NCBI GenBank assembly: GCA_047975285.1 | Contig: JBKEDG010000011.1 | Coordinates: 6,777 to 70,776, forward strand | From: Bacilli bacterium | GTDB lineage: Bacteria; Bacillota_I; Bacilli_A; JBKEDG01 | Length of the DNA: 64,000 nucleotides | Reading direction: 5' to 3' | Made by a program: the position numbers and the translations under genes | Shown here: positions 5,137 through 61,431 of the stretch, one piece after another | Numbering within the stretch: the stretch's first letter is position 1 | Layout: every line of letters begins with the position of its first letter | The notes under the pieces: generated by a model | The model's database searches: none | What the model saw: the letters and a program-made list of their open reading frames with translations, nothing else | Told to the model about the DNA's origin: nothing

Positions 5137-6552
5137 ATGAAAAAAAATATAGTGGGATTATTAAGTATACTGTTGATGGTAGTAGTTTTATTACCTAAGA
5201 GTGCAGTAAATGCAAGTGGGGTAAAAAATGGTATAGGTAATACGATTTTTGAACAGTTTCCTGATCCCAATATGGCAAGTGCTGTTGCTGATGTGATTGC
5301 AAATGGTGATGTGAATGCAGTTATTGATCAGGAATTAGTTGATAACACACAGGATTTAATACTACGTGATAGTTCTATTACAGATATAACGGGGATTAGT
5401 GTATTTTCCGAACTAGATATTTTGGATTTAAGTAATAATGATTTAAAGACCTTACCAGAATCAGTTGGAGAGTTAAAGGAATTACAACTATTAACATTGT
5501 TTAATAATAATAGTTTAGCAACTTTACCAGAATCAATTGGGGAGTTGACAGAATTAAAAACTTTAAAAATAATGGGTGGAGATTTAGTAAGTGTACCAGA
5601 ATCAATTGGGAATTTAAGTGAACTAGAGGATTTACAACTGGCTAAAAACAATTTGGTGAGTATACCAGAATCAATTGGAGAGTTGAAAAAATTAAAAAAT
5701 TTACAGTTGTATGATAATAATTTGACAAGTTTACCAAGTTCAATCCTTGAGTTACCACAATTATTTAATTTGACAATATGTGGTAATTTGCTTCCAGAAA
5801 GTGCAGGGGCTCAAATAGAAGAGCAACAGAATGATTTAAATGTTAATCAAAGTTTTAATAAAAAATTAATGATTAGTAATAGTTCAGTTAAAGTTGAAGT
5901 TGGAAGTAAATCAGATTTTGAGACAATTGATTATGCTTCCATTTTAAAAATTGAGGAACAAAAAAAACAAAATGAGACAATTGAAGATTACAGTAAAGCG
6001 CTAAATAATTATGAGTATACGCTTGAATCGATTACTGATGAAGATGGAAATATTGTTGAGATAGATAGTTATTTTGATACTAGTGGTAGTGTGATTAAAG
6101 AAGGAACTGTTTTTGCTAAAGTTCGTGCAAATGGAACGGGTTTATTTGAAAATTCAAGTGAGAACGCTATAACAACTGATAAGGTAAAAATGCAATTTTC
6201 TAAACAAGTAAATAAGTATAATCTATTTTTAAATGTTATATATGATGATATTAATTATACTCATGCTTTTCCATTAGTTGCGGGAGAGTTGATAAAAAAA
6301 CCTAACGATGTAAAAAGAGACGGATATAAATTTATTGGTTGGAATACTAGTGTAGATGGTAGTGGAGTTATTTGGGATTTTGATAGTGATCTAATGCCAG
6401 CTAATGATTTGAATTTATATGCACAGTGGGAAAAAGTAGACTCTAATATAGAAACTCTTCCTAAAACTGGGTTGGGTATTAATTCTAGTATGATTTTGAT
6501 GTTTGGAGCTACTGTGTTATTAAGAAAAATGGTAAAGAAAAATAATAAGTAA
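5137..6552 (+). CDS. Leucine-rich-repeat (internalin-like) surface protein with LPKTG anchor
   Basis: ATG at 5137 is preceded by aaagggga. Signal peptide MKKNIVGLLSILLMVVVLLPKSAVNA. Seven or more 22-23 aa LRRs (L..LP.SIGEL..L..L.L..N.L). A Listeria/Bacteroides-type repeat (GYKFIGWNT..DGSG..WDFD...YAQW). C-terminal LPKTG + TM + basic tail. Confidence 0.8.
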   Translation: MKKNIVGLLSILLMVVVLLPKSAVNASGVKNGIGNTIFEQFPDPNMASAVADVIANGDVNAVIDQELVDNTQDLILRDSSITDITGISVFSELDILDLSNNDLKTLPESVGELKELQLLTLFNNNSLATLPESIGELTELKTLKIMGGDLVSVPESIGNLSELEDLQLAKNNLVSIPESIGELKKLKNLQLYDNNLTSLPSSILELPQLFNLTICGNLLPESAGAQIEEQQNDLNVNQSFNKKLMISNSSVKVEVGSKSDFETIDYASILKIEEQKKQNETIEDYSKALNNYEYTLESITDEDGNIVEIDSYFDTSGSVIKEGTVFAKVRANGTGLFENSSENAITTDKVKMQFSKQVNKYNLFLNVIYDDINYTHAFPLVAGELIKKPNDVKRDGYKFIGWNTSVDGSGVIWDFDSDLMPANDLNLYAQWEKVDSNIETLPKTGLGINSSMILMFGATVLLRKMVKKNNK

Positions 6553-9445: not shown

Positions 9446-11311
9446 ATGAAAATTGAAGATATTAAAAGTCCTCATATTTTAAAAGATATGAATATAGATG
9501 AATTAAATAAACTTAATTCAAATATCCGAGAGTTTTTGATTGAAAATGTTTCAAAAACAGGGGGACACTTATCTTCTAATTTGGGTGTTGTAGAACTCAC
9601 TACAATTTTACATAAAGTATTTGATAGTCCAAATGATCAAATATTTTTTGATGTGGGTCACCAAAGTTATGTACATAAAATTTTAACTGGAAGAGCAAAA
9701 GATTTTCACAGTTTAAGGCAGTTTCAAGGATTAAGTGGTTTTATCAAAAATAGCGAAAGCCTTCATGATGTTTGGGAAAGTGGACATGCTTCAACTAGTT
9801 TAAGTGGATTACTTGGCTATAGTCAAGCAAATAAAATACTAGGTGTTGATAATAAGACAATTGCTGTTATTGGCGATGGTAGTATTGGTGGAGGTATGTC
9901 ATTTGAAGCTTTAAATCATATTGGAGAAATTGGAGAAAATGTGATTGTTGTTTTAAATGATAATGGAATGAGTATTACCAAACCTGTAGGCGGATTGTAT
10001 GCTTCTTTATCAAAAATTAGGCTATCACAAAACTATATTGGGTTTAAGAAAAAGCTTAAACGAATAGTTAGAAAAGTACATGGTGGACATAGAATTCTAA
10101 GTTATTTTAAGAATGTGAGAACTAATTTAAAAAAGAAATTCTTTGAAGAAGGCTACTTCTTTGAAGAACTAGGACTGAAGTACTATGGACCAATAGATGG
10201 ACATGATAGTGAACAATTAATTGAAATTTTTGAATTTGTAAAAAATTTAAAGAAGCCGATTTTAGTTCATGTTAAAACAATTAAAGGAAAAGGGTATAGT
10301 TTTGCAGAAAATGATACTAGTGGTGCATGGCACGGGGTTTCAAAGTTTGATGTAAAGACAGGTGAAATTCTTAAAAATAAGAAGTTCGGTTATGAAAATT
10401 GGAGTAATATAATTATATGGACAATTGAAGAACTTGCTAAAACTAATGAGGATATTGTTGTTTTAACTCCTGCTATGGAAAATGGTAGTATGTTAGAAAA
10501 CTTTAAGAAAAAGTTTCCTGACCGTTATTTTGATGTTGGAATTGCAGAAGAACATGCAACAACAATGTGTGCAGGGCTTGCGCTTGGAGGGCTTCATCCA
10601 GTCTTATCAATTTATTCAACATTTTTACAACGTGGATACGATCAGTTAATTCATGATATTTGTAGAATGAACACAAGAGTAGTTATCAGCGTTGATCGTA
10701 GTGGAATTGTTGGAGCTGATGGTGAAACACATCATGGTATTTATGATATTGCATTTTTAAAAACTATTCCAAATTTAGTTATTTGTATGCCAAGAAATGC
10801 AGAGGAGGCTCAGCACTTGTTAAGCACATGTATTAAGTATAATGGTCCTATTGCAATCAGATATCCAAGAGGTAGTGCAGAATTTAATCAAGTAAATGCG
10901 TATAAAGAATTTGATATTGGTGTATGGGAAGAGGTTACTTATGGAAACGATGCAGTTATCATTTCATATGGGCCACATGTTGATGAACTGTGTATGTATA
11001 TTAATAAACATAATTATGATATTGGGGTAATTAATGCCCGATTTATATCTCCTATTGATTATGGCATGTTGCAAAAAATATTTAAAAATTATAAAAATGT
11101 CTATGTTTACGAAGAGGTGGTTGCAAGTAATAATTTATATTCAGAAATTGTAAAAGTTGCTTTTGAAGGTAATTATGATGTGAATATTGAGTCTTTTTGT
11201 CTACCTAATAGTTTTATTGAGCATGGTGATGTTAAAGATATTTTAGCTAAATATGAACTAGATTATAAAACAGTTTTTACAAAGATTATTGAGGTGAGTA
11301 ATGTTAAATAA
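9446..11311 (+). CDS. dxs: 1-deoxy-D-xylulose-5-phosphate synthase
   Basis: 621 aa, with GGHLSSNLGVVELT, GHQSYVHKILTGR and the ThDP motif GDGSIGGGMSFEALN. Confidence 0.9.
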   Translation: MKIEDIKSPHILKDMNIDELNKLNSNIREFLIENVSKTGGHLSSNLGVVELTTILHKVFDSPNDQIFFDVGHQSYVHKILTGRAKDFHSLRQFQGLSGFIKNSESLHDVWESGHASTSLSGLLGYSQANKILGVDNKTIAVIGDGSIGGGMSFEALNHIGEIGENVIVVLNDNGMSITKPVGGLYASLSKIRLSQNYIGFKKKLKRIVRKVHGGHRILSYFKNVRTNLKKKFFEEGYFFEELGLKYYGPIDGHDSEQLIEIFEFVKNLKKPILVHVKTIKGKGYSFAENDTSGAWHGVSKFDVKTGEILKNKKFGYENWSNIIIWTIEELAKTNEDIVVLTPAMENGSMLENFKKKFPDRYFDVGIAEEHATTMCAGLALGGLHPVLSIYSTFLQRGYDQLIHDICRMNTRVVISVDRSGIVGADGETHHGIYDIAFLKTIPNLVICMPRNAEEAQHLLSTCIKYNGPIAIRYPRGSAEFNQVNAYKEFDIGVWEEVTYGNDAVIISYGPHVDELCMYINKHNYDIGVINARFISPIDYGMLQKIFKNYKNVYVYEEVVASNNLYSEIVKVAFEGNYDVNIESFCLPNSFIEHGDVKDILAKYELDYKTVFTKIIEVSNVK

Positions 11312-13476: not shown

Positions 13477-14366
13477 TCAACAGTTATAAAATGTATTTGG
13501 AGTTGGAAAGAAAGTTGTCAAAAGAAACCGTAGAATCATATGGGATTGATATCGCCCTTTTTATAAAATTCCTAGAAAAGATAGAGATTGAGTTAGCAGA
13601 AATTGATTATAGAGTTGTAGAAAAATATCTTACTTTTTTATCTACACTTAACTTAAGTGCAAAGAGCTTAAATAGAAAATATTCTAGCCTCAGAAATTTT
13701 AATAAATTTTTAATTAGAGAAAAGGTTGTTAAAAGTGACTTTACCTCACAAATTAAATTTCCAAAACTTAGCGAAACACTACCCAATTATTTAACTGTGG
13801 AAGAGATAGATTTACTATTGAATTTTGAAACTAAAACAAAGAATGATTATCGAAATAAGGCAATGGTTGAGTTAATGTATTCGGCTGGACTTAGAGTTAG
13901 TGAGTTAATTAGGATTAAATTAAATGATATTAGTCTAGAGCATTTATCAATTAAAATTTCTGGTAAGGGTAATAAAGATAGGTTTGCTGTTTATGGAGAG
14001 TATGCAAGAGATTGTATTGAGGATTATTTACTTAATTATCGAGACAAATTTTTAAAAACTAGTAGCAGTGAGTATTTGTTTGTCAATATTCATTCTAAGC
14101 CTATTTCTCGTCAATCTTTTTGGAAGATAATTAAAGTGATAGCTAGAAAGCAAAGTATTAATGAAAAAGGAGTATCTCCACATACACTTAGACATTCATT
14201 TGCTACACATATGATCGAAAATGGTGCTAAGATAAGAGTTTTGCAGGAAATGTTAGGTCATAGTGATGTTAGTACAACACAGAAGTATACACATCTGAAT
14301 GTTAAATATTTAGAAGACAAGTATAATGAGATATTTGAAGCAGTTATATTAGAAGGAGATGATTAA
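13473..14366 (+). CDS. xerD: Chromosome-dimer-resolution tyrosine recombinase XerD/XerC type
   Basis: SAM-like N-domain. Catalytic residues are present (AGLRVSEL, HTLRHSFATHM, LGHSDVSTTQKYTH). It sits in the conserved recN-nudF-xerD-deoB context. Confidence 0.8.
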   Translation: MINSYKMYLELERKLSKETVESYGIDIALFIKFLEKIEIELAEIDYRVVEKYLTFLSTLNLSAKSLNRKYSSLRNFNKFLIREKVVKSDFTSQIKFPKLSETLPNYLTVEEIDLLLNFETKTKNDYRNKAMVELMYSAGLRVSELIRIKLNDISLEHLSIKISGKGNKDRFAVYGEYARDCIEDYLLNYRDKFLKTSSSEYLFVNIHSKPISRQSFWKIIKVIARKQSINEKGVSPHTLRHSFATHMIENGAKIRVLQEMLGHSDVSTTQKYTHLNVKYLEDKYNEIFEAVILEGDD

Positions 14367-14367
14367 T

Positions 14368-15543
14368 ATGTACAAGCGAGTAATCATGATTGTGCTAGAT
14401 TCAATGGGAATTGGGAATGCAATAGATGCTAAAGACTATGGAGATGAAGGAGCTAATACTTTACTTAATGCTTCTACATTTGATGGATTTAAAGTACAAA
14501 ATTTGGAAAAACTAGGGTTAGGGAAACTAGGGTATTTCCCTAATATTAAACCTATGCAAGAGATGGGATATGCTAGTAAGTGCAATGAATATAGTAAGGG
14601 TAAAGATACAACTGTTGGACACTTTGAATTTATGGGAGTAGAGACAAAAGTACCATTTCCAGTGTTTACTAAGACTGGTTTTCCAAAGGAATTAATTTCT
14701 GAACTAGAAAGTAAAACAGGTCATAAATTTATAGGTAACTATGCTAGTAGTGGAACAGTCATTTTAGATAAACTTGGTCAGGAACACTTAGATACTGGTG
14801 CATTAATAATATATACTTCTAATGATTCTGTATTGCAAATAGCTGCTCATGAAGAAAAAATTGGGCTTGAAGAACTATATCGCGTATGTAAAATTGCAAG
14901 AGAGATAACATTAAAGGATGAATGGAAAGTTGCACGAATTATTGCAAGGCCATTTATAGGGAGTGAAAATGCATGGAAAAGAACTAGTAACCGTCACGAT
15001 TATTCATTAAACCCTCCCCATAAAACAGTTTTAAATTATTTGGAAGATAACGGATTTGATGTTATTGGTGTTGGAAAAATTCCAGATATTTTTAATAATT
15101 ATGGTATCACTAAAAAGGTAGTATCTAAATCAAACATGGACGGAGTAGATAAAACAATTCAAGAATTAAAGCAAGATTTTACAGGATTATTATTTACAAA
15201 TTTAGTTGAATTTGATTCTGAATATGGACATCGAAGAGATTGTGAAGGTTATGGAAGGGCGATAATGGAATTTGATAATAGGTTACCAGAAATATTTAGT
15301 AATTTAAAGACAGATGATTTACTTATATTAACTGCAGATCACGGGAATGACCCAGGGTTTGAAGGGACTGATCATACAAGAGAACAGATTCCGTTACTTG
15401 TTTATTCAAAACAGTTTAAGAAATATGGGTTACTAGAAGAAAGAATGACATTTGCAGACATTGGAAGCACGATAGCTGATAATTTTAAAGTAAGGAAGCC
15501 TAAAATTGGTAAAAGTTTTTTGGAGGAATTAAGTGAAGAATAA
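14368..15543 (+). CDS. deoB: Phosphopentomutase
   Basis: RVIMIVLDSMGIG near the N-terminus, and TADHGNDP...GTDHTRE metal-binding motifs. Confidence 0.9.
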   Translation: MYKRVIMIVLDSMGIGNAIDAKDYGDEGANTLLNASTFDGFKVQNLEKLGLGKLGYFPNIKPMQEMGYASKCNEYSKGKDTTVGHFEFMGVETKVPFPVFTKTGFPKELISELESKTGHKFIGNYASSGTVILDKLGQEHLDTGALIIYTSNDSVLQIAAHEEKIGLEELYRVCKIAREITLKDEWKVARIIARPFIGSENAWKRTSNRHDYSLNPPHKTVLNYLEDNGFDVIGVGKIPDIFNNYGITKKVVSKSNMDGVDKTIQELKQDFTGLLFTNLVEFDSEYGHRRDCEGYGRAIMEFDNRLPEIFSNLKTDDLLILTADHGNDPGFEGTDHTREQIPLLVYSKQFKKYGLLEERMTFADIGSTIADNFKVRKPKIGKSFLEELSEE

Positions 15544-17559: not shown

Positions 17560-19513
17560 TGATTGAATCTGAAATATTTTGACGCATTTTTTTAATACCT
17601 ATTATATATAACAACAATGTATCTATGATAAAAGTAATAGCAACAATTAAAATGATACTTGTATTATAATTTAACATAATTCCAAGGGGAATATTAAGTA
17701 AAATAAGTGTATTTAATATAGCATGATTTTTAAATATTTTTAAGTAACTATATCCAAACAATAATTTGATTGCGTGCGATTTTTTATTTGCAGTCAAGTA
17801 AAAGTATATTGTGTTTAACGCTAAAGCAATAAATAGAAGGCTCATAATAATTATTGCTGTAGTATTCCACATTAATATTACTTTGTTTTCATTAATCATA
17901 TTTTTATATGGTGCAAGTTTATTAGCTGGAACTAAAATGTCGGATAATCCTGAGGAATGAAATAAACTATAAAAGTCATCAAAATTATTAAATCTGTAAA
18001 AATATTTATCAGCATTGATTATTGGTGATGTAATTAAATTAGAGTTAATAACAAAAATTGTATCCCTGTTTATTTTACCTACTTCACTTGTATTAAATTT
18101 ATTGGTTTGTGAAATGATATTACCATCATAGTACTTAACTTCTTTAATTGTAGCTTGCTGGTCAATACTAACTTTATAATAATCTTCATAAAACTGTTTC
18201 GTATCTTTTAGAGTAGTTTCGTACGTACTAGTGATCTCATCAGTATTTGCTTTATATTTCATAGGAACTAATAGTACTATATCAGTAGCTTTAAAGTCTT
18301 TCAAATTACTGTAAGTTATAAAGTCATTTGCAAAATTTGAATTTACTTCAACATAATTTTTATTATAATCATCTTCTATTTCATTTAATTGCTCTTTTAC
18401 ATCTCCATCAAATTGTACAAAGTCATAGTAAGTATATGATATGTAATATGCATTAGTTATGTTCTTAGCATTATATTTATCAAAATCACTATTATTTTCG
18501 CTAAAATATTTGTTATTTGAGTCTAATTTAAAATAATTACTCGTATACCCATCAAATCCATAATAATCATTCAAAAATTCATACTGCTTTAGCATCTTCA
18601 AATTTTCATTATTTTGTTTATTAATTTTAAATACTTGATTAAGTGCAAATAATAAAATAAAGCTTACTACAATTTTTAATACAAATAGCATATTTGTCCC
18701 ATTTTTAAGTCCATTAAAATTTTTTAAATAGAGTACTGCTTTTTGAATTTTATACTTGTTATAAGACAGAAAAAATAGGATAATAAATACTATTGATGAT
18801 AATAGTAAAAATGTTGTATAATGTATTATAAATTTCAAATTAAAAACACTATTATAAAATAAGTAGCATGACATAATTAATGATTAAGCAACTATTGAAA
18901 AAAGAATTAACTTTAAGATTAACTTTATAGACCGTTTTAATACTTTTTGCTCAGAAAATCCCATAATAATCATTATTGACTGTTCTTTCCTATTGTATGA
19001 ACATAACAGATAATTAACAATTAATGTTGTAATAATTAAAGCAGTAATAATCCCTATATTTAAATACATAAAGCCTTTATAATCTATAATCATATTAGAC
19101 TCTTTCACTTGATTTTCACCAAATATTGTATTTAATTCATCTATAGTAAGTGTTGTTCCAAATATTCCGTTTGAATTTAAAAATTGGGTGTTAGAATCCA
19201 TTTTTATAAAATCAAATTCCATTAAATTATTAGTTGCTTTATATAAGCTACCTTCATAATTAGTGTTGTAATATATTTTATAAATATATTTATTTTTATG
19301 GGTATAATTAGAATAAGTAACTAATGGATAACTTTCATTCACTTTTTCATATACATCATTAGAACTTATTGCGGAGTTTTCTGTTAGAGTATATCAATTT
19401 AAGTCACTTGTTCCTAAGTTTTTCATTTCATTTATTCTATTTATTCCAGAATAATAAAAAAGAGTTAGTACAAAAAATAGCATAATTACATACACAGAAA
19501 ATAGTTTTTTCAT
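17549..19513 (-). pseudogene. Bacteriocin-associated integral membrane protein (DUF1430 / FtsX-like), interrupted by in-frame TGA and TAA
   Basis: ATG at 19513 follows gaaagga. One reading frame of 654 codons joins the two track ORFs (18884..19342 and 17549..18874) and a 57-codon N-terminal piece. In-frame TGA lies at 19396..19394 and TAA at 18886..18884. The architecture parallels the paralogue at 56779..58694. Confidence 0.75.
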
Positions 19514-19579: not shown

Positions 19580-19891
19580 TTATCGTTTATAATAATCGTA
19601 ATAAGAAGATTCGTTCGCCCACCAAACTCTATTTGCAGACTTATATGCTTTATCATTTTTCCAACCAGTACCATGGTAATTTCCATTATATACAGTTGCT
19701 TTTACAGCGTATTTATATTTATCTTTTATATTTTGATCATTTATTGAAGAATAAACTTTTGTATTATCTTGATATCCACTAAAATATAATTTCCTTACTT
19801 CTAAACTATATCCGGCGTAAATATTTACAGTGCTAATAAAAAGTACTACAGTTGAGCAAAATAGTAAAAATTTTTTTATTTTTCTCTCCAT
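19580..19891 (-). CDS. Secreted small protein, divergent lactococcin-972-like bacteriocin precursor candidate
   Basis: 103 aa with signal peptide (...VNIYA/GY). Mature part is Tyr/Asn/Lys-rich with a C-terminal SSYYDYYKR, comparable to the YYNW tail of the 56406 paralogue. It lies directly upstream of the DUF1430 + ABC pair and carries the shared promoter motif. Confidence 0.55.
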   Translation of the reverse strand: MERKIKKFLLFCSTVVLFISTVNIYAGYSLEVRKLYFSGYQDNTKVYSSINDQNIKDKYKYAVKATVYNGNYHGTGWKNDKAYKSANRVWWANESSYYDYYKR

Positions 19892-19892
19892 A

Positions 19893-19917
19893 CTTTTTAA
19901 AGAAGTATAACTTATAG
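19893..19917 (-). promoter_or_regulatory. Shared bacteriocin promoter-proximal motif, copy 1
   Basis: The minus strand reads ctataagttatacttctttaaaaag immediately before the ATG. TTGACA lies at 19946..19941. Compare copies at 56371-56401 and 61070-61101. Confidence 0.6.
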
Positions 19918-20068
19918 TATGTATAATATAACATTGTATTTGTCAACTGATTTTTTAAAAAAAACATTGACATAGTTTTACAATGATTCACATGGATATT
20001 TGTTACCAATAAATTAAGATATTAGCTATGTAGAAATAACCCTTGTAATATGGTATAATACTTTGTAG

Positions 20069-34973: not shown

Positions 34974-37900
34974 GTGGAGTATATGAAGCCGAGAAAAAGT
35001 GAGTTAAAATTTGAAAAAGAATTAATTGCTTATTTAGAAAACTTAGGAGGAGTAAAGCAATGGGAATATTTACCTAATGTTAAAACTACAAATGGGTTAT
35101 GGAGGAATTTTAAGAAGATATTAGAAAGTAATAACAAACACACTTTGGATAAAGAACTTTCAGTCACAGAATTTAATCAAGTTATAAAAAGGGTTACAGA
35201 CTTAAAAACACCATTTGAAGCGGGGCAATTTCTTTATGGAGTTAACGGTGTATCTGAAATTGAAATTGATTTAGATAATGGTAAGCATATTTTTCTTAAA
35301 GTTTTTAATCAAGCAAATATAGGTGCTGGCTCTACAGTGTATCAAATAGTTAATCAAATAGAGCGAAAGAAAATAATTGATGGCAAACCTAATCGTCGTT
35401 TTGATGTTACGTTATTAATTAATGGTTTACCGATTATTCAAATTGAATTAAAAACTGTAGGTCATAGTGTTAATGAGTCGTTTAATCAGATGAAGCAATA
35501 CATTTCAGAGAAGCAGTTTGATGACATTTATTCTACCTTACAGATATTGGTTGGTATGACGCCTAATGAGATTAAATATATGGCTAATGCAAAACTAAAT
35601 GATTTTAGTAGAGATTTTGCATTTGATTGGCAGTCTGAACATAAAATAGTTAATTCTTGGAGAAAATTCTCTGATGAAGTATTATCAATTCCCATGGCAC
35701 ATAATTTAGCAACTAGATATATGGTATTAGATGGGACAAAGAATAAAGAGAGTATTAAGGTGATGAGACCTTATCAAGTTAGGGCAACCAAAAATGCATT
35801 GGATAAAATAAACAAACATGATTTTAAACATGATGGTAAATTAGGATATATTTGGCATACAACTGGTAGTGGGAAAACTATCACCAGCTTTAAAACAGCT
35901 TGGTTAGCAAGTAAGATGTCGCATGTTGATAAAGTAGTCTTTCTAGTTGATAGAATAGCTTTAACTAATCAGACTAGTGATGCTTATAGGGCCTATGATC
36001 CAATTATTAGTAATAATGGAGTAGTGGTAGATACTGCAAATGTTTCGGATCTAATTGATAAATTAAAAAGTAAAAGTGATAAGAATATTATTGTAACAAG
36101 CATTCAAAAAATGTCTCGTTGTGTTGACAGAATGGATTGTGATAGTTTAAAAAAGAATATTTTATTTATCGTTGATGAAGCCCATAGATCAACTAGTGGA
36201 GAAAAAGAAACAGAAGGAATGTTTGCCCGTATTAGAAATAAAATTCCTACATCAGCTTGGGTTGGATATACTGGAACACCTAATTTTAAAAAGAACAAAA
36301 TTACAACAGAAGCTATTTTTGGTGAATTACTACATGCATATACGATAAAAGAGGCAATAGTAGATAATAATGTCTTAGGATTTAATGTTGAATTTAAGGA
36401 AACTATTAAAGCTCCTAAAGATCCAAGTGCAGAAGATATTGATGATAACATGAAAGCAAGTGTTTATGATAATCATCCTGATCATGTCAATTTGGTAGTA
36501 AAAGATATTTTTAAAAATTGGCAGACTCGATCAAGCAATTATAAGTACAATGCTCTATTAACAGTGCATGTAGGAGGGGGGAAAGCCTCTACTCCAAGAG
36601 CAATGGAATATTATTATAAAATGTTAGAAGAAAATCAAAAATATCCAGATGATAAACAAATCAAAGTAGCTGTCAGTTTCTCTATGGATACATCCAATAG
36701 AGATAATCAGCTGTCTACAAACAAGAATTTAGAAAAGGCTATCAAGCAATATAATCAACAATTTAATACCAATTATGATTTAACTACGACTAAGGAGTAT
36801 AAAGAAGACTTGGTTAGACGCTTAAATAAAACAAGTGATGATCAAAACTATTTAGACTTAGTTATCGTGGTTGATCAATTGTTAACTGGTTTTGATGCTC
36901 CACAGTTGAACACCTTATATGTTGATAGAACTCTAAAGGGTGGTAACTTAATTCAAGCATATTCTCGAACTAATAGAATCCATAATAATATTTACAAACC
37001 ACATGGTAATATTATTAACTATCGCTGGCCAACTCAAAATGAAGAAGAAATGAATGATTCATTAGCGATTTATTCAGATATTAGCTCCGCTGACAAACAA
37101 TTATCATTAATAGAAAGTGGTATATTGATTAAAAATTTCAAAGAAGTAAAAGAAAATGCTAAAGAAATTGTCGAAAATCTATCTAAATTAACAGATGAAT
37201 TTACAAAAGTTCCAGATAGTGAAAGAGAGCAAAAAGAAGTATACGAGCAACTTAAAAAATACAATGCAATAATCAATAAGTTAAAACAATATAGTGAAGA
37301 TGAACATGGTGAACCAATATCTGCTTATGATGATCGTGAAGGTTTCTATAAGATTATTGGGATAGGTGAGGAAGAAGAAATTTATTTAACTACAGTAATC
37401 GCAAATAGAATTAAAGAAAAAATTTCAGAAGATGAAGATATAGATATTTCTCAAGTAGATCTGCAAATGGAACACATTAGTGAAGTAAGAATTAACTATG
37501 ATTATTTAAGTGAGTTAATTAAGAAAATGGCCAATAGTATCCATGACAACAAAACAAAAGAAGTAGAAACAATTAAAAAAGAAATTGAAAAAGAAATTGA
37601 AAAATCTGATAACTTTAATTTGAAGACAAAAATATCTAATTTCATTGAAAAAATAATAAGTGGTAAATATACATTTGAGTCATATCCAGTAAATGAAGCT
37701 AAAGAAAATATCTATCAAACAATTTATCAAGAACACACTAATGATAATATGAAACAAATCGAAAAATTTATTAAACAATGGGATTTAGCTATAAATGTTG
37801 ATTTATTATATAAACTTATTAGTAAACATCGCTATGGCAATAGAGAAGATCTAAATAAGCAAGATGAATTAAATGAGCTAATCAATCACTCAAAAAACAA

Positions 37901-38012
37901 TTTTCAAAGTTCAACAGGTGAAAACCTTAAGAAATTAACTTGGATTCAATATCGAATTAAAGTTAGAGAATCAATGTATGAACTTGCTGATAAAATTAAA
38001 AAAGAAGAGTAA
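34974..38012 (+). CDS. hsdR: Type I restriction enzyme R subunit
   Basis: About 1010 aa. N-terminal PD-(D/E)xK nuclease (RFDVTLLINGLPIIQIELK). SF2 motor (HTTGSGKT, FIVDEAHRS, GYTGTP, LLTGFDAP, QAYSRTNR). Helical C-terminal domain. The likely start is ATG 34983. Confidence 0.9.
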   Translation: MEYMKPRKSELKFEKELIAYLENLGGVKQWEYLPNVKTTNGLWRNFKKILESNNKHTLDKELSVTEFNQVIKRVTDLKTPFEAGQFLYGVNGVSEIEIDLDNGKHIFLKVFNQANIGAGSTVYQIVNQIERKKIIDGKPNRRFDVTLLINGLPIIQIELKTVGHSVNESFNQMKQYISEKQFDDIYSTLQILVGMTPNEIKYMANAKLNDFSRDFAFDWQSEHKIVNSWRKFSDEVLSIPMAHNLATRYMVLDGTKNKESIKVMRPYQVRATKNALDKINKHDFKHDGKLGYIWHTTGSGKTITSFKTAWLASKMSHVDKVVFLVDRIALTNQTSDAYRAYDPIISNNGVVVDTANVSDLIDKLKSKSDKNIIVTSIQKMSRCVDRMDCDSLKKNILFIVDEAHRSTSGEKETEGMFARIRNKIPTSAWVGYTGTPNFKKNKITTEAIFGELLHAYTIKEAIVDNNVLGFNVEFKETIKAPKDPSAEDIDDNMKASVYDNHPDHVNLVVKDIFKNWQTRSSNYKYNALLTVHVGGGKASTPRAMEYYYKMLEENQKYPDDKQIKVAVSFSMDTSNRDNQLSTNKNLEKAIKQYNQQFNTNYDLTTTKEYKEDLVRRLNKTSDDQNYLDLVIVVDQLLTGFDAPQLNTLYVDRTLKGGNLIQAYSRTNRIHNNIYKPHGNIINYRWPTQNEEEMNDSLAIYSDISSADKQLSLIESGILIKNFKEVKENAKEIVENLSKLTDEFTKVPDSEREQKEVYEQLKKYNAIINKLKQYSEDEHGEPISAYDDREGFYKIIGIGEEEEIYLTTVIANRIKEKISEDEDIDISQVDLQMEHISEVRINYDYLSELIKKMANSIHDNKTKEVETIKKEIEKEIEKSDNFNLKTKISNFIEKIISGKYTFESYPVNEAKENIYQTIYQEHTNDNMKQIEKFIKQWDLAINVDLLYKLISKHRYGNREDLNKQDELNELINHSKNNFQSSTGENLKKLTWIQYRIKVRESMYELADKIKKEE

Positions 38013-38073: not shown

Positions 38074-39306
38074 ATGGAGGGAAATAACAACAAAAAACCA
38101 AAAATAAGATTCAAAGGATTTACTGACGCTTGGGAACAGTGTAGGTTGGAGGAAGTATTTATCAAGGGTGGATCTGGTGGTACTCCTAAATCTACGAACA
38201 AAGCATATTATGATGGAAAGATCCCGTTTTTAGGAATATCAGATATTTCAAAATCAAATGGATATATTTATAAAACTGAGAAATACATCACAGAAGAAGG
38301 TCTGAATAACTCATCTACTTGGATTGTTCCAACTGGTTCTATAAGTCTAGCTATGTATGCGTCTGTTGGTAAATTAGCTATATTAAATACTGATGTTACA
38401 ACATCACAAGCGTTTTATAATATGGTTTTTGATAATAATAATTTACGTGATTTTATTTATCATCGTTTAAGTAAATCGTACGACTCAGAAGAATGGAGAA
38501 AATTAGTTTCTACAGGTACGCAACCTAATTTAAATGCTGAAAAAGTTAAGAAATTTAAAATTTCTATCCCAACTAATAAAGTAGAAATTGCTATGATTTC
38601 GAACTTTTTTATGAAAACGGACAACCTTATCACCCTTCATCAGCGTAAGTGTGATAAACTTAAAGAATTGAAGAAAACTTTACTTTCAGAAATTTTTCCG
38701 AGAAATGGTGAAAACACACCTAATTTAAGATTTGGAGGATTTACTGACGCTTGGGAACAGCGGAGGCTGAGGGATATCCTAATAGAATTTAGTGAAAAAT
38801 CAAAAAAAGAAAATGAATATAAAGTTTTATCAAGTACAAATATAGGGATGGAACTTCGAGACGGCAGAGTATCTGGGCAATCTAATGTTGGATATAAAAT
38901 TATTGACAATGGTGATTTAGTGCTTTCTCCACAAAACTTATGGTTGGGTAACATAAACATAAACAACATCGGAAAAGGACTGGTTTCACCTAGTTACAAG
39001 ACTTTTAAGTTTAAAGACATAGATTCAAATTTCATTAAACCACAATTAAGAACCTCAAAAATGATGGAGAGTTATAAGAACGCGTCTACTCAAGGGGCGA
39101 GTGTTGTTAGAAGAAATCTTGACATTGATTTATTTCAACAGATAATTATTTTAATACCAACTCAACTTGAACAGCGTCGAATCGGAACCTTTTTCTGGGA
39201 TTTAGACAATCTCATCACCCTTCATCAGCGTATGCATCTTTTAAATTATATTAGTCTTGATAGAGATCTTATTATTAAATCAGTATCTTGGTTTTCTAGT
39301 TCATGA
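38074..39306 (+). CDS. hsdS: Type I restriction specificity subunit, expressed copy of an invertible shufflon
   Basis: Two TRDs, each preceded by GFTDAWEQ and followed by NLITLHQR. A 22-codon tail runs antisense into the recombinase gene. Confidence 0.9.
   Translation: MEGNNNKKPKIRFKGFTDAWEQCRLEEVFIKGGSGGTPKSTNKAYYDGKIPFLGISDISKSNGYIYKTEKYITEEGLNNSSTWIVPTGSISLAMYASVGKLAILNTDVTTSQAFYNMVFDNNNLRDFIYHRLSKSYDSEEWRKLVSTGTQPNLNAEKVKKFKISIPTNKVEIAMISNFFMKTDNLITLHQRKCDKLKELKKTLLSEIFPRNGENTPNLRFGGFTDAWEQRRLRDILIEFSEKSKKENEYKVLSSTNIGMELRDGRVSGQSNVGYKIIDNGDLVLSPQNLWLGNININNIGKGLVSPSYKTFKFKDIDSNFIKPQLRTSKMMESYKNASTQGASVVRRNLDIDLFQQIIILIPTQLEQRRIGTFFWDLDNLITLHQRMHLLNYISLDRDLIIKSVSWFSSS
38116..38139 (+). 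repeat. 24-nt direct repeat (GFTDAWEQ box), copy 1. An identical copy is at 38737-38760, and an inverted 16-nt copy at 40684-40699
   Basis: ggatttactgacgcttgggaacag occurs twice in hsdS. cgcttgggaacagtgt (38127-38142) is the exact reverse complement of 40684-40699. Confidence 0.9.
39205..39237 (+). repeat. 33-nt inverted repeat (LITLHQRMH box), left arm; the partner is at 40192-40224
   Basis: gacaatctcatcacccttcatcagcgtatgcat compared with the reverse complement of 40192-40224 gives 32 of 33 identical. A shorter copy is at ~38628-38647. Confidence 0.9.
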
Positions 39307-40172
39307 ATTACATGAAGGTAGGTTTTTTGTGTTGTTGTCATACTTGAATGACCTAATCTTCTAGCAACACTAGCAATTGTTACTCCTGCATATAAGAGTA
39401 ACGATGCGTGTGTATGTCTCAATCCGTGAATCGAAATTTCGGGTATATCTGCACTTCTACAAATTTTAAATAATCTATTATTAGGTGTTGAGTTAAAAAC
39501 TCTCCCTTGTACAAATATAGGCTTATCTTTTTCTTTGCCACTTACAAGTCTAGCAAACTGACTTACTGTCTGCCAATCAATTTGAATTTTTCTAATGGAT
39601 GACCTATTTTTTGTGGGTAAAAATCCTCCGTGTCCTTTATAATTCCAAGTTTTGCTAACAGATACAGTTTGGTGAGTAAAATCAAAATCATCGGGTGTTA
39701 ATGCTAATGCTTCTGAGAATCTCATGCCAGTTTTTGCTATAATTAGAATTAACCAATCCCAATTTATTTCATCTGTTAGATTTAGATTTTTAACTAGTGA
39801 ATGTAACTCAAATTGGTTTAAATATTTCTGTTTTTTCTTTTTTGGAGGTCTGCCTTTTATAATCGCTTTTCTTGTTGGATCTCTTTCAATTAATCCGTCG
39901 TCTACAGCATCTAAAATACATGCTTTAAGATGATGATGAAAATCCATTGTGGTTTGTTTTTCGTGGAATTCGGCATATTTATTTATTATGTGTTGATAGG
40001 TTGTTCTATTAATTTCAAACAATTTCATATTAGGTACTATCTTATTTATCCATATTTCAGTCATTCTATATTTAGATAATGTTACATCTCTCACTGCTCC
40101 TATTTTAAATATTTTTACCCATTGGTGGAAATATTTTGAAAAAGTATCTTTTTTTGTTATTAATTTTAACAT
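39246..40172 (-). CDS. Tyrosine site-specific recombinase (hsdS shufflon invertase)
   Basis: 308 aa. Catalytic R (TGMRFSEAL), HGLRHTHASLL and GHSSMTTTQKTYLH. It lies between the inverted hsdS repeats. Confidence 0.85.
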   Translation of the reverse strand: MLKLITKKDTFSKYFHQWVKIFKIGAVRDVTLSKYRMTEIWINKIVPNMKLFEINRTTYQHIINKYAEFHEKQTTMDFHHHLKACILDAVDDGLIERDPTRKAIIKGRPPKKKKQKYLNQFELHSLVKNLNLTDEINWDWLILIIAKTGMRFSEALALTPDDFDFTHQTVSVSKTWNYKGHGGFLPTKNRSSIRKIQIDWQTVSQFARLVSGKEKDKPIFVQGRVFNSTPNNRLFKICRSADIPEISIHGLRHTHASLLLYAGVTIASVARRLGHSSMTTTQKTYLHVIHELENQDTDLIIRSLSRLI

Positions 40173-40185
40173 TTTTTTCTCCTTC

Positions 40186-40710
40186 TTATAAATGCATACG
40201 CTGATGAAGGGTAATGAGATTGTCCAAGGTGTCGAATATCTGAATAATTTCTTTTTGTTCTTTCTCTGTCGGAATTAAAATCTTAATTTCTAAAAAATCA
40301 GATTCATGTATTCTCCATTGTCCATAAATGACACCTTGTCGATATCGTATCATCTTAGCAATAAAATCTTTACGAGTTGATAAAATTCCGATATATCTAC
40401 TCTCTAACTTACTCTTTGAGAAAAATATACTATATACTGGTGAAATCACAGCTTTTCCAGTCTTATTGAACCCTATTGATCCTGTTTCGAGATTATTTGA
40501 GCTATAGATAAAATCTCCATATTCCGTGACTTTGTATTTTTTCTGACTGCTTGTAACTAAGAAACTCCGATCATATCTGTCACCTTTGGGCGTAACCCCT
40601 AATCCCTGAACAAATGACATTAGTGGATATTCTTCATTCTCTGGGACTTGAGTATTTCTCTCTACCAATAAATCCCCCAACTCACACTGTTCCCAAGCGA
40701 AAGTATAGTA
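40186..40710 (-). other. Silent hsdS' half cassette (one TRD, no start codon or promoter)
   Basis: The minus-strand frame is open from just after a TGA (40713..40711). It reads ..FAWEQCELGDLLVERN...TRD...LDNLITLHQRMHL-stop and is bounded by both inverted repeats. Confidence 0.85.
40192..40224 (-). repeat. 33-nt inverted repeat, right arm
   Basis: Reverse complement of 39205-39237 with one mismatch. Confidence 0.9.
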
Positions 40711-45286: not shown

Positions 45287-45319
45287 TATCGGGGGAATAG
45301 ATGTTTTATCCTGCTTTAG

Positions 45320-45348
45320 TTGACAGTACAATCTATCTATGATAATAT
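45320..45348 (+). promoter_or_regulatory. Promoter of the cobalamin operon
   Basis: TTGACA, a 17-nt spacer, then TAATAT. Confidence 0.6.
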
Positions 45349-45359
45349 ATAAAATATAA

Positions 45360-45580
45360 TTGAAGAATATATATAATTAAGCACACTAAGTGTAGGAAAT
45401 TGGGTTAGATTCCCATACAGAGCCGCTACTGTAATGCAAGCAATTGTTAGTCAGACACGTTTTATATATTTTGTTGATTAGATCTTCGAGCATAAGATTT
45501 ACAACTTTTATCACATATACTGTTACTATACTTTATAGAATAAAACTGTAAATCACTTGTAGATTTGCAGTTTTATTTAT
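45360..45580 (+). promoter_or_regulatory. Cobalamin (B12) riboswitch with terminator expression platform
   Basis: Core aggaaattgggttagattcccatacagagccgctactgtaatgc matches the GGAA..GGT.A.ATTCC..ACAG.GCC.C.ACTGTAA pattern. A terminator hairpin ctgtaaatc/gatttgcag + T run lies at 45546-45578. It is immediately upstream of cbiK. Confidence 0.75.
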
Positions 45581-45595
45581 TTAGAAAGGTGTGAT

Positions 45596-56160: not shown

Positions 56161-56370
56161 ATATAATATTATCAAGTGTAAGATAATATATTGGTAATGT
56201 ATTTTTTTCAATAATTACTGTAAAAAAATGATAAAATTTACTTTCTTAGTTATTAAAATGAGATAAGATTTTATTGTTACAATAAATGTAAAACTCCAAA
56301 CAAAAATGTACTTTAAATTGTTTAAATATCATTGATAAATATAGTTTTGTAGTTTAATATATATATATAT

Positions 56371-56401
56371 TATAAGTTAGCCTTCTTAAAAAGGTAGGAG
56401 A
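56371..56401 (+). promoter_or_regulatory. Shared bacteriocin promoter-proximal motif, copy 2 (includes the SD)
   Basis: tataagttagccttcttaaaaaggtaggaga, preceded by an (AT)7 tract at 56357-56370 and TTGATA at 56332-56337. Confidence 0.6.
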
Positions 56402-56405
56402 TAAT

Positions 56406-56708
56406 ATGAAAAAATTAGTTATGGGTTTGATTTTGCTATTTGGAATATTAAGTTTAAATGTTGATGTGTCTAACGCAGGTATTTCAAGAGGTGACTACGA
56501 TGGAGGATACTGGGTAAGAGGAGTTTCTGGAAGTTCATTACAATCAAAATATACAACTTATCGCTCTGGAAAACAAGGGGTTGCATCAACAACAGATGGA
56601 CGTGGTCAGTATGTGTCAGGTGGATGGAAAGCAAGATATAAGCAATCTAATGGTAGTCAATATACCTCTATTTGGTATGGTAACAAAATGTATTATAATT
56701 GGAAATAA
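56406..56708 (+). CDS. Lactococcin 972 family bacteriocin precursor
   Basis: 100 aa with Sec signal peptide (...VDVSNA/G). The mature part GGYWVRGVSGSSLQSKYTTYRSGKQGVASTTDGRG...GNKMYYNWK follows the Lcn972 pattern (GG.W..G...S.Y......H/Q..A.....; C-terminal YYN.W). Confidence 0.8.
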   Translation: MKKLVMGLILLFGILSLNVDVSNAGISRGDYDGGYWVRGVSGSSLQSKYTTYRSGKQGVASTTDGRGQYVSGGWKARYKQSNGSQYTSIWYGNKMYYNWK

Positions 56709-56725
56709 AATTTTACTTAATAAAT

Positions 56726-56754
56726 AAGAATCACATTTTCTGTGATTCTTATTT
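56726..56754 (+). terminator. Hairpin (attenuating terminator) directly after the bacteriocin structural gene
   Basis: Perfect 10-bp stem aagaatcaca/tgtgattctt with loop ttttc and an ATTT tail. Confidence 0.65.
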
Positions 56755-56778
56755 ACGGTATAGAGCAGGAGTTTAATC

Positions 56779-58694
56779 ATGAAAAAACTTTTGAATGTAA
56801 CATATCTTTTTTTAATGGTTGTAGTTGTAATTTCATTTTCATATATAGTTGTAGTAGCCCAAAATCAACAAAAATTACTTGCTGATCGGGAATCTGTATC
56901 CGTTGTCTTAAGCCAAAAGACAAGTGCAGATGATTTTGTTGAAGTCTTAGTTGATTATGCAGCAAAAGAAGATATTACAATTTTGAAAACATTTTACAGT
57001 AGTGATTCAACAATTATTTATTCCACAAATGATATTGAAATTAACGATTCGATTTTTAAGCGTGGTAATAAAAGCAAAGTTTTTGATATTAAAGAGGTAA
57101 ATAATGCTGGATATGATGGAGAATATTATTTATCAAGCAATTCAATTGGATTTTGTGAAAAGATCATTGAAAATAATTTTGGGACATGTGATGTAAACTC
57201 AAGAGGAGAAACTAATAATTTTGTAATATTTCTGTCGGTATTATTAATCTTACCATTGTTATTAACAACTTACATTATTTTTAATTTTATTGTTTTAATG
57301 AATAATAAAAAATATATTTTACAGCACATTGATGGAATGAGTACACATAAGATTATATGTAGATTTTATGGTGAATTATTAAAACCAATAGTAAGTCTAT
57401 TCCTTATAATCAATTTATTGATAATACTGTTTATAAATGAGTATGTGGTTTGGAAAGTTATTTTCTTTGTATTAATTATAAATATAACTTTATTTATATT
57501 TTCATATATACTTTTACACTTTAATATTCAAAAATTATATAAAACAAATTTAAATAGTGTCATCAAAAATAAAAGTGGTAAATCAGTTTTTAGCTACGTA
57601 ATAATAAAAGTAATTCTAGTTATTGTAACAGCAATTACATTAAATGTTATACTTGTTATTGCTCAAAGTAGTTATGAGAAATATTCAAAATTAGATACTT
57701 ATGAAAAACTTGATAAATATTATGGATTTGAATCTAAATATATTGGACAAGAAAGTATGAGTGAAGAAGAGCGTATTAGTTACGATAAGAATAATGCTTA
57801 TTTTTACAAGTCCCTTGATCACACTAAGACCTATGTACTTACAACAAATGACTATGATGATAGTGTAGTAGATACACCTGAGGGAAAAATGTACAATAAT
57901 ACTATCTTTGCAAATGAAAAGTACTTAAAAAACATTATGAAGATAAATACTGTCCTGTTGTAGCAAATGAATTAACAATTTATCTACCACCAAATTTGAT
58001 GTCTGAAATTGAAGATATTAAAAAAAGTATTATTTATAGTACAAAAGACGTCTTAGTTAATAAAGATATTAAATATAATTTCATTGAATATTCAGGCGGA
58101 ACTTTGCTTAGGTTAAATCCATAATTAATTGAAAAAGAAGTTAAAAATCCAATAATAATTCAAGACAATTTATTGTTTGACGATAGTTTTTACAGTACAA
58201 TTATGACAAATCAAGCAATTTATACAAAGATTATTGATGAAAAACCCTACGCTTTGCTATTACCAAGTTTACAAAAATACAACTTAGATAAACAAATAGT
58301 TGAAGTGTTTACTCCACATAATCAAGCTATAAAGACGCTAAAAACACTAAAAAATACGATATGTATTGCACTAATTGTTTTAACTATTTTAGTAATTACA
58401 TTCATATTAACAATATTAAATATAAAAAGAATAATGTTTATAAAAAAAGGGAAAGAGTATACGGTAAAATATATTTTAGGAATTTCTCCCAAAAGTATAT
58501 TTAAAAAATATTTTGTTGAAGATACTGTTTTCTTACTCATATACCTAGTAGTAGCACTTTTTACTCCTGTACCATACATTGTATCATTTATAGCGCTATT
58601 AATTCTATTAGGCATTGATATAACTATAAAAATATACGGTATAAATGCAAATTTGAAAACTAATATAAACAGTTTAATTAAGGGGGAAATATGA
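56779..58694 (+). pseudogene. Bacteriocin-associated integral membrane protein (DUF1430 / FtsX-like), disrupted by a frameshift in an A6 run and an in-frame TAA
   Basis: Frame 1 (56779..57963) must shift -1 at A_AAA_AAC (57927-57933) to continue as ...KKHYEDKYCPVVANELTIYLPP.... That frame has TAA at 58122-58124, then continues into track ORF 58173..58694. It is colinear with 17549..19513. Confidence 0.75.
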
Positions 58695-60984: not shown

Positions 60985-61069
60985 ACATTGAACTTTTGCA
61001 AAAATAGTATTAATAAGGTACTGTCATTTTTTAAATAATATTGACAATTTTATTAATATATATATATAC

Positions 61070-61101
61070 TATAAGTTAAACTTCTTTAAAAAGTTAGGAG
61101 A
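61070..61101 (+). promoter_or_regulatory. Shared bacteriocin promoter-proximal motif, copy 3 (includes the SD)
   Basis: tataagttaaacttctttaaaaagttaggaga contains the perfect palindrome AAGTT-A-AACTT. It is preceded by an (AT)6 tract at 61056-61068 and TTGACA at 61041-61046. Confidence 0.6.
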
Positions 61102-61106
61102 TTAAG

Positions 61107-61361
61107 ATGAGGAAAATATTTATAATACCAATTTTTGCATTGCTTTTTGTAATTGCAGTTTATGGATTTCCATTTGTTTCTAGTATGCTAGGTGTAAGTA
61201 CATATGCTGCAAAAAAAATTGTAGATGCTATTTTTATTGGCGCTGGATTTTGGACAATAGTGGGATTAATTGCTGCTGGAGGAGGAGTGGCTGCGATTGG
61301 AATGGGGTTTTTACGATATATGACAAAAAGACTTGGAAGAAAAGCGACAATTGCATGGTAA
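61107..61361 (+). CDS. Circular bacteriocin precursor, circularin A/uberolysin family
   Basis: 84 aa. The C-terminal ~58 aa (LGVSTYAAKKIVDAIFIGAGFWTIVGLIAAGGGVAAIGMGFLRYMTKRLGRKATIAW) resembles uberolysin as I recall it: an AKK(I/V)VDAI helix, a Gly/Ala-rich hydrophobic core and a basic tail ending A-I-(A/I)-W. Typical maturation genes follow. Confidence 0.75.
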   Translation: MRKIFIIPIFALLFVIAVYGFPFVSSMLGVSTYAAKKIVDAIFIGAGFWTIVGLIAAGGGVAAIGMGFLRYMTKRLGRKATIAW

Positions 61362-61381
61362 TAAATTTCTTAACTAAAATT

Positions 61382-61404
61382 ATACTCAAATTGAGTATGC
61401 TTTT
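61382..61404 (+). terminator. Hairpin (leaky terminator) after the circular bacteriocin gene
   Basis: Stem atactca/tgagtat with loop aat and tail gcTTTTa. Confidence 0.5.
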
Positions 61405-61431
61405 ATACTGCTATCATTTATAGGGACAAAG

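Follow-up and report, generated by a model that had tools for sequence, protein, structure and literature searches.

The bacteriocin loci

The window analyzed here is a stretch of 64 kb of one uncultured low-GC genome (Bacilli bacterium, contig JBKEDG010000011.1), in which a short non-coding motif occurs in three copies in all, each at the head of a bacteriocin operon. The precursor gene at copy 1 (19580..19891, minus strand) encodes a secreted peptide of 103 amino acids (aa), and behind it lie a fragmented gene for a membrane protein of the TIGR01654 type and an ABC ATPase; that at copy 2 (56406..56708, plus strand) encodes a secreted peptide of 100 aa; and that at copy 3 (61107..61361, plus strand) encodes an 84-aa circular bacteriocin precursor of the circularin A/uberolysin family. 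That the last is a circular bacteriocin, as stated in an earlier reading of the sequence alone (hereafter, the sequence-only reading), is borne out by profile matches to PF09221 (29.5 bits, cutoff 23.6) and TIGR03651 (35.7 bits, cutoff 30.7), both above cutoff.

The precursors at copies 1 and 2 are about 100 aa long and have signal-peptide-like N-termini. No Pfam or NCBIfam family matches either of them, no likeness between the two is detectable (BLASTP E = 0.23), and their structure models (pLDDT 53 and 59.5) are too poor for a structure search. The label "Lcn972-like", earlier attached to both, is not confirmed by the protein sequences; its support, which is weak, comes from the gene context, i.e., the neighboring membrane proteins, whose matches to TIGR01654 ("bacteriocin-associated integral membrane protein") reach 52 and 18 bits, below the cutoff of 189, and the adjacent ABC ATPases. 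Between the loci, precursors, membrane proteins, and ABC ATPases cannot be aligned beyond generic ABC motifs. Since the precursors and adjacent proteins are unrelated, the shared segment is not a by-product of gene duplication, as the sequence-only reading had argued.

The islands are placed between housekeeping genes. The island of copy 1, which includes an unannotated open reading frame (ORF) of 340 aa, lies between xerC-like and metalloenzyme genes and apbE; the island of copy 2 follows cobalamin genes; and the island of copy 3 follows the genes for a peptidyl-prolyl isomerase (PPIase) and a C_GCAxxG protein. As noted before, the window ORFs include no transcription-factor gene, and no two-component, helix-turn-helix (HTH), or sigma factor gene is found in the 64 kb.

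Specificity of the motif

The pattern scan of the whole window with TATAAGTTANNCTTCTTWAAAAAG, at most three mismatches allowed, yields matches solely at 19893-19916 (minus), 56371-56394 (plus), and 61070-61093 (plus), compared to 0.04 expected; none of 100 dinucleotide-preserving shuffles attains three. Each match lies directly 5' of a small secreted-peptide gene, and no other site exists in the window. Further or weaker copies in the 64 kb are revealed neither by the nhmmer profile nor by the covariance model built from the three copies, and no other gene (65 ORF starts in the window) has a motif-like region upstream, the best agreeing at 18 of the 29 specified positions. As the pattern, profile, covariance, and upstream-region scans find no others, the motif is specific within the window and does not represent generic AT-rich promoter/Shine–Dalgarno (SD) composition, an outcome whose genome-wide form the sequence-only reading had named as its refutation; the three sequences it quoted are all present at their positions.

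The same proteins occur in Logan contigs of run SRR30067258, in which copy 2 recurs, as does copy 3 in its 3' part; an independent check of copy 1 returned an empty exact-protein look-up and a Logan contig that stops at the stop codon of the gene. A role as a recombination site is ruled out, since the motif occurs once per island and is absent from the far ends.

Extent and promoter anatomy of the module

The ~30-nt promoter-proximal motif first reported is real. Alignment of 210 nt around each copy shows the similarity to be wider, about 85 nt: it opens with an A/T tract, takes in the -35 box, and ends at the start codon. The order is the same in all copies: the A/T tract TTTTTTAAAWAAT, the -35 box, a TA-rich spacer, a -10-like hexamer, the motif, the SD, and the start codon. 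Outside this module the three loci are not alignable, and the coding regions and downstream genes are unrelated.

In copy 3 (plus strand), the A/T tract cattttttaaataat (61025..61039), UP-element-like and similar in all aligned copies, is followed by the -35 box TTGACA (61041..61046), the -10 box TATACT (61065..61070), the motif 5' flank CTATAAGTTA (61069..61078), and the SD AGGAGA (61096..61101), 5 nt 5' of ATG 61107. The start site is predicted at about 61075-61078. The first 2 nt of the motif belong to the -10 box, and the discriminator, the predicted start site, and the whole ~30-nt leader all fall within the motif; hence the position proposed earlier, overlapping or just past the transcription start, agrees with the predicted promoter ending at 61070. 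Copy 2 (plus strand) has the -35 box TTGATA (56332..56337), TAATAT (56355..56360), which the scan gives as the only -10-like hexamer 17 nt from it, TATATT (56366-56371), the homologue by alignment of the -10 hexamer in copies 1 and 3, the 5' flank TTATAAGTTA (56370..56379), and the SD AGGAGA (56396..56401), 4 nt 5' of ATG 56406. In copy 1 (minus strand), the corresponding elements are TTGACA (19941..19946), CATACT (19916..19921; aligned with the copy 3 -10, not called by the scan), the 5' flank CTATAAGTTA (19908..19917), and the SD-homologous TGGAGAG (19884..19890). The 10-nt 5' flank yTATAAGTTA is invariant across the copies save for its first base (C/T).

By the sigma-70/sigma-A criterion (TTGACA-like and TATAAT-like hexamers 16–18 nt apart), the consensus scan predicts the promoter TTGACA-18-TATACT in copy 3 (11/12 to consensus) and TTGATA-17-TAATAT in copy 2 (9/12), the latter with a -10 sitting 11 nt upstream of the homologous hexamer; it calls none in copy 1. 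From the -35 box to the homologous hexamer (TATACT, CATACT, and TATATT in copies 3, 1, and 2, respectively) the distance is 18, 19, and 28 nt, the last due to an insertion of ~10 nt (about 56343-56353) between the -35 box of copy 2 and the remainder. The motif lies 23 nt from the -35 box in copy 1, 32 nt in copy 2, and 22 nt in copy 3, which corrects the earlier values of 23–24 nt (copies 1 and 3) and about 31 nt (copy 2).

These distances bear on the proposal that the conserved block is not a leader at all, and is instead the promoter of an alternative sigma factor (a bacteriocin/toxin sigma of the TcdR/UviA type or another one). The varying TTGACA-to-block distance of 18, 19, and 28 nt would be odd for one sigma-A promoter, and GTTATA is present in copy 1. 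However, promoters of the TcdR family have TTTACA at -35 and GTTATA at -10 (PMC4031146), unlike the TTGACA/TTGATA seen here; GTTATA is confined to copy 1, with 29 nt between it and the -35 box; and no sigma factor gene is found in the window. We regard this proposal as extremely unlikely.

The motif had been described as sitting upstream of the start codons, which holds for copies 2 and 3, whereas the ATG of the copy 1 ORF (19891-19889) falls inside the motif. The position of the ATG of copies 2 and 3 is occupied in copy 1 by ATA (19879-19877), 5 nt past the SD; the sole in-frame ATG is 12 nt upstream of this ATA, in the 3' arm of the hairpin described below, and has no SD of its own. The precursor gene of copy 1 may be poorly translated or have an unusual start.

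The motif and the spacer have diverged to different extents. In copies 1 and 3, 30 of the 33 motif positions are identical by profile alignment count, while the spacer is ~65% identical, near the composition background. Because of this difference, we infer that the module is under selection.

A predicted hairpin in the leader

Downstream of the invariant flank, each copy contains a small inverted repeat of the form nnCTT / CTT(T)AAA / AAGnn. The predicted hairpin of copy 3 is AACTT-CTTTAAA-AAGTT (61079..61095, plus), with a 5-bp stem and a 7-nt loop; that of copy 2 is GCCTT-CTTAAA-AAGGT (56380..56395, plus), with G:U and C:G in place of A:U pairs and a loop 1 nt shorter; and that of copy 1 is TACTT-CTTTAAA-AAGTA (19891..19907, minus), whose stem an A:U and two G:U pairs could lengthen to 8 bp. 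Copies 1 and 3 have the loop CUUUAAA, and copy 2 has CUUAAA. The stem ends at the SD: AGGAGA abuts it in copies 2 and 3, and GGAGAG lies one base past it in copy 1. The palindrome AAGTT-A-AACTT pointed out in the sequence-only reading is indeed perfect in copy 3, but only there, and is lost in copy 2; the conserved dyad is the adjoining nnCTT...AAGnn.

Pairing was analyzed in the 37 motif columns within the 45-column alignment A2 of the three sequences. Eight of the 37 columns are variable, and four of these eight (15, 16, 30, and 31) pair mutually, forming the outer two stem pairs: T:A and A:T in copy 1, G:U and C:G in copy 2, and A:T and A:T in copy 3. These pairs lengthen the invariant CUU/AAG core to a 5-bp stem. 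Standard pairs fill 15 of 15 stem cells, and two of the five pairs are altered on both sides, with one G:U. When the 3' partner is slid by 1–3 columns, pairing falls to 27–53% and no covariation is left. When column shuffles are searched for any helix, 0.25% of 20,000 trials yield one that is fully conserved, 5 bp or longer, and has two or more covarying pairs (p about 0.0025; three sequences).

As to the question whether the dyad is an operator or a hairpin of the 5' untranslated region, on which the sequence-only reading took no side, the compensatory stem changes, the G:U pair, and the 1-nt loop deletion make the evidence, from three sequences, lean toward RNA. RNA is favored over a dimeric DNA site because the G:U pair and the shorter loop of copy 2 are tolerated by RNA and would not readily be accepted by such a DNA site. 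As a DNA operator, the element would be bound by a factor encoded elsewhere, at AACTTCTT-T-AAAAAGTT or at the AAGTTA direct repeats at the start site, and would repress the three promoters. The position from the -10 box to about +25 is classic for a repressor, copies 1 and 3 show 7/8 symmetry in the 17-bp dyad, base-specific contacts would account for an invariant loop and 5' flank, the hairpin is thermodynamically unremarkable, and an HTH protein gene follows the island in the relative LVI A0039 (see below). In copy 2, however, the central base is missing and the half-site spacing is therefore altered; a half-site position is altered symmetrically on both arms; and the outer pair, G:T in DNA, is a dyad mismatch. 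Neither is there a regulator gene in the 64 kb. Compared by eye to the CodY, LexA, cre, and ComX boxes, the motif bears no convincing likeness to any, which also counts against an operator. Overall, we consider repression at the DNA level unlikely. The ComX-box-like reading is rejected, as the motif has nothing in common with the region 5' of comEA, a late-competence gene.

The invariant parts of the leader could also pair with each other. In such a switch (a thermometer or riboregulator), the invariant CUUCU would pair with AGGAG and sequester the SD, competing with the small hairpin, and temperature or a trans-acting factor would decide. The pairing CUUCU:AGGAG is possible in all copies (92.9% of cells) and is the fold of minimum free energy computed for copy 3 and, at 25 C, for copy 2; a CUUCUUU tract is seen before the SD of the circular-bacteriocin homologue too (E 3.7). 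At the same time, both arms are invariant and hence provide no covariation, and the SD accessibility of the three leaders is unexceptional (ranks 8, 14, and 15 of 36 window genes). The resemblance to FourU thermometers is at chance level, 10.6 bits, far under the gathering threshold of 60 bits. An SD-sequestering switch is thus highly unlikely. Generally, no family of Rfam 15 reaches its gathering threshold anywhere in the window, and the best local scores, for FourU (RF01795; 10.6 vs. 60 bits) and TYMV_upPK (15.5 vs. 38 bits), are below threshold.

A promoter–leader module and its possible action in mRNA

Judging from the sequences, a shared promoter–leader module under selection likely heads the three bacteriocin operons, and its probable nature is that of a lineage-specific module with an RNA hairpin; the arrangement suggests common expression control of the three operons. 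More tentatively, and short of an even chance, the leader may act at the RNA level, via stability of the mRNA 5' end or translation initiation. In this model, each operon is headed by one ~85-nt module composed of the A/T tract, a -35 box at or close to consensus, a TA-rich spacer with the -10 box, and a leader of ~30–40 nt. The motif is essentially this leader: the 10-nt 5' flank, followed by nnCUU / CUU(U)AAA / AAGnn as a small stem-loop and then by the SD. The stem-loop beside a strong SD may stabilize the mRNA 5' end; in the B. subtilis aprE leader, stabilization is provided by a 5' stem-loop together with ribosome binding, and RppH, which initiates 5'-end-dependent decay, requires unpaired 5' nucleotides (reviewed in PMC3997798). 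Alternatively, the stem-loop would be a plausible site for a factor occluding the SD; an RNA-binding factor with sequence specificity would be in keeping with the invariance of the loop and flank. With the same stability and translation settings, the three precursor mRNAs would be expressed together. The sequences show directly the repeated module, how far it reaches, its restriction to three sites in the window, the unrelatedness of the genes behind it, and the pairing pattern; the start sites, the formation of the hairpin in vivo, and its role are predicted from them.

The hairpin of copy 3 lies 1–5 nt from the predicted 5' end, and that of copy 2 about 13 nt from the predicted start if TAATAT serves as the -10 box. 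Several observations weigh against an mRNA-level function. Since the promoter spacing of copies 1 and 2 differs (a 19-nt spacer in copy 1 and a -10 box 11 nt further upstream in copy 2, the start sites being predicted), the hairpin is not equally 5'-terminal in all copies. A start at A61074 would leave five unpaired nucleotides with G at +2, a good RppH substrate and not a protected end. The invariant loop and 5' flank are not needed by a pure stabilizer. The energy of the hairpin, -2.5 to -4.1 kcal/mol, is weak and no better than that of shuffled sequences (z from -1.05 to -0.04). In the row-shuffle control, 75 of 500 shuffles do as well, although this control cannot reach significance with only three sequences. 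Finally, no copy of the motif is present outside this genome in the collections scanned (see below), and hence there is no phylogenetic support.

A more specific version of the mRNA-level model takes the hairpin for a translational or stability operator recognized by an RNA-binding protein or small RNA, in which case the three operons would form a lineage-specific post-transcriptional "bacteriocin regulon", Bacilli/Mollicutes-related. This version is speculative, and we hold it doubtful.

Comparison with other genomes

A search for the exact motif core in GTDB species genomes (a set without the window's own genome), JGI metagenomes, and IMG/VR gives no true copy. The exact-pattern matches in these collections are scattered over unrelated taxa in a number that fits the rough chance estimate, and they have no promoter or SD context, save for one in the phage-like metagenome contig JAEIGA010042745.1, where the downstream gene (259 aa) is unrelated. 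Just 5' of this probably fortuitous match and its SD, between two phage-like genes, the same contig contains a hammerhead-ribozyme-like sequence ATCTGTC...CTGATGAG...CGAAACAGAT (5618-5668). BLAST of the module against plasmids and phages gives insignificant AT-rich matches only.

The closest homologue of the copy 2 precursor, 71% identical, comes from Mollicutes bacterium LVI A0039 (CP136953.1) and heads the same island: the precursor, a 638-aa membrane protein, an ABC ATPase, and an S26 signal peptidase (59% identical). The leader there is non-homologous and has the same layout, i.e., a (TA)n tract, a 6-bp hairpin UAAGGA-GAACA-UCCUUA (-5.8 kcal/mol), and an SD, which speaks for the mRNA-level model. 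The closest homologue of the copy 3 precursor is 60% identical and has an unrelated upstream region, apart from the CUUCUUU tract that precedes its SD as well (E 3.7, not significant). The covariance model applied to the upstream regions of the homologues yields matches at E 0.18–4 only. Given homologous precursors elsewhere without the module, the motif is tied to this genome and not to its genes. Relatives sought via the adjacent PPIase do not exceed 48% identity; by ApbE, the closest relatives stand at 59% identity, and on the contig of one relative the syntenic apbE site has no copy 1 island.

Such a distribution is relevant to an explanation that dispenses with a dedicated regulatory element, namely, that the module is an inert cassette of a strong promoter and ribosome binding site copied by recombination or gene conversion, with recency accounting for the conservation and quasi-palindrome correction by template switching accounting for the stem changes. 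The edges of the similarity are sharp and the pattern is mosaic, with copies 2 and 3 sharing the spacer (88% over 42 nt) and copies 1 and 3 sharing the motif; the islands are inserted between housekeeping genes, with that of copy 1 absent at the syntenic site of the relative; the operons are partly decayed; and the native Lcn972 promoter is merely a strong one. On the other hand, divergence between copies 1 and 3 has brought the spacer near the composition background and spared the motif, chance would seldom produce two independent compensated pairs, and orthologous precursors elsewhere lack the cassette, linking it to the genome and not to the genes. Simple copying therefore seems to us a minor possibility.

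Several further features were observed in CP136953.1. The orthologous precursor apparently starts at ATG 9963 and meets a stop past the A-run ATGAAAAAAAACTTATAG (9963-10003), which suggests a frameshift or a slippery A-tract. Behind the island lies a gene for a 370-aa HTH_11/HTH_24 protein (13879-14991), of which the window has no equivalent. At 15192-15214, in an intergenic position with no hairpin or gene start following, the 15-mer TATATTATAAGTTAG repeats exactly the -10-like hexamer and 5' flank seen in copy 2; with at most one mismatch, TAYTATAAGTTA occurs six times in the 20-kb LVI A0039 locus, compared to 1.7 expected. This sequence may be a lineage-typical -10/discriminator.

Likeness to known systems

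Among known 5' mRNA stabilizers of Firmicutes are the aprE leader of B. subtilis and the STAB-SD of B. thuringiensis cry3A. The module shares with them a short leader, a stem-loop near the predicted 5' end, a strong SD next to it, and a secreted product, highly expressed in those systems; it differs in its 5-bp, weak stem, in the sequence conservation of the loop and flank, and in the lack of sequence homology. The likeness is one of arrangement only: the 5' position of the stem-loop is predicted here, and stabilization would follow by analogy.

Unrelated bacteriocin operons under one promoter architecture are also known from the class II loci blp, pln, cbn, and spp. Promoters of the blp/pln type carry two ~9-bp direct repeats ~12 bp apart upstream of the -10 box, recognized by a LytTR regulator, and the kinase, regulator, and pheromone genes adjoin. 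The present case is similar in that several non-homologous bacteriocin operons have a conserved upstream module, implying co-ordinate expression; however, the conserved part here is downstream of the -10 box, the alignments of the three copies show no LytTR-type direct repeats upstream of -35, only the A/T tract, and no two-component, regulator, or pheromone genes are nearby. By these comparisons the module belongs neither to the stabilizers nor to the class II promoters.

The native lactococcin 972 promoter P972 of pBL1 is a plain strong TTGACA/TAAAAT promoter (PMC4055356). Common features are the consensus TTGACA at -35 and a small secreted bacteriocin gene followed by genes for a large membrane protein and an ABC ATPase; P972 differs in being a single locus, and PMC4055356 describes no conserved leader hairpin for it. 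As in the FourU RNA thermometers (RF01795), a U/C-rich stretch of the leader can pair with the SD AGGA in a weak helix, but with 10.6 vs. 60 bits and an SD that is not unusually occluded, the leader is not a member of this family.

Co-ordinated production of bacteriocins is usually ascribed to quorum-sensing regulators that bind upstream of promoters. Here, the part common to three unrelated bacteriocin operons is downstream of the -10 box and bears signs of a selected RNA hairpin by the ribosome binding site. If confirmed, the module would be a compact, portable unit of expression and control, a natural promoter–leader part useful in low-GC hosts, and a handle on the whole bacteriocin regulon of the organism and its regulator; an RNA operator, in particular, would co-ordinate bacteriocins in a way unlike the customary control of transcription by quorum sensing. 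Based on three copies from a single uncultured genome, and lacking comparative support, the proposal is a lead rather than a result.

Other features of the islands and the window

The precursor genes of copies 2 and 3 are followed by hairpins, both of which sit in intergenic gaps of exactly 70 nt. The one at copy 3 (61375..61405, plus) has an 8-bp core (61381-61399) and a U-run; the one at copy 2 (56714..56760, plus) is strong, with a 15-bp core (56721-56755), and the 91-nt folded region has an energy of -19.8 kcal/mol (z -3.65). The two hairpins resemble the partial terminators or stabilizers often found behind bacteriocin structural genes.

The membrane-protein gene of the copy 2 island (56779-58694) is colinear with the single 638-aa protein of LVI A0039, but a frameshift near 57960 and an in-frame stop break it up. 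As a Logan contig shows the same split, the gene is probably disrupted. In the copy 1 island (18884-19513, minus), an in-frame TGA separates a 39-aa hydrophobic ORF (19513-19394) from the 152-aa ORF after it, and the match of the next ORF, of 441 aa, to TIGR01654 is limited to the C-terminal two thirds of that family; this island may thus have a fragmented immunity/transport gene. Genetic code 4 is rejected and the standard code applies, since TGA terminates 12 of the 65 genes.

Elsewhere in the window, a type I restriction–modification locus comprises hsdR (34974-38012), hsdS (38074-39306), and a partial hsdS on the opposite strand (40186-40680). Several inverted repeats of 29–45 nt, 71–94% complementary, link hsdS and the partial hsdS (38074-40705), and the region looks like a candidate phase-variable shufflon of the specificity subunit, with no recombinase identified beside it. 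The 309-nt gap 45287-45595 upstream of the cbiK operon for cobalamin biosynthesis, searched for a cobalamin riboswitch, contains no Rfam match at the gathering threshold. At 5428-5775, tandem repeats of 69–72 nt encode the leucine-rich repeats (LRR) of a 477-aa surface protein with LRR and Listeria–Bacteroides repeat domains, whose gene adjoins that of a 1542-aa surface protein with immunoglobulin (Ig)-like domains.

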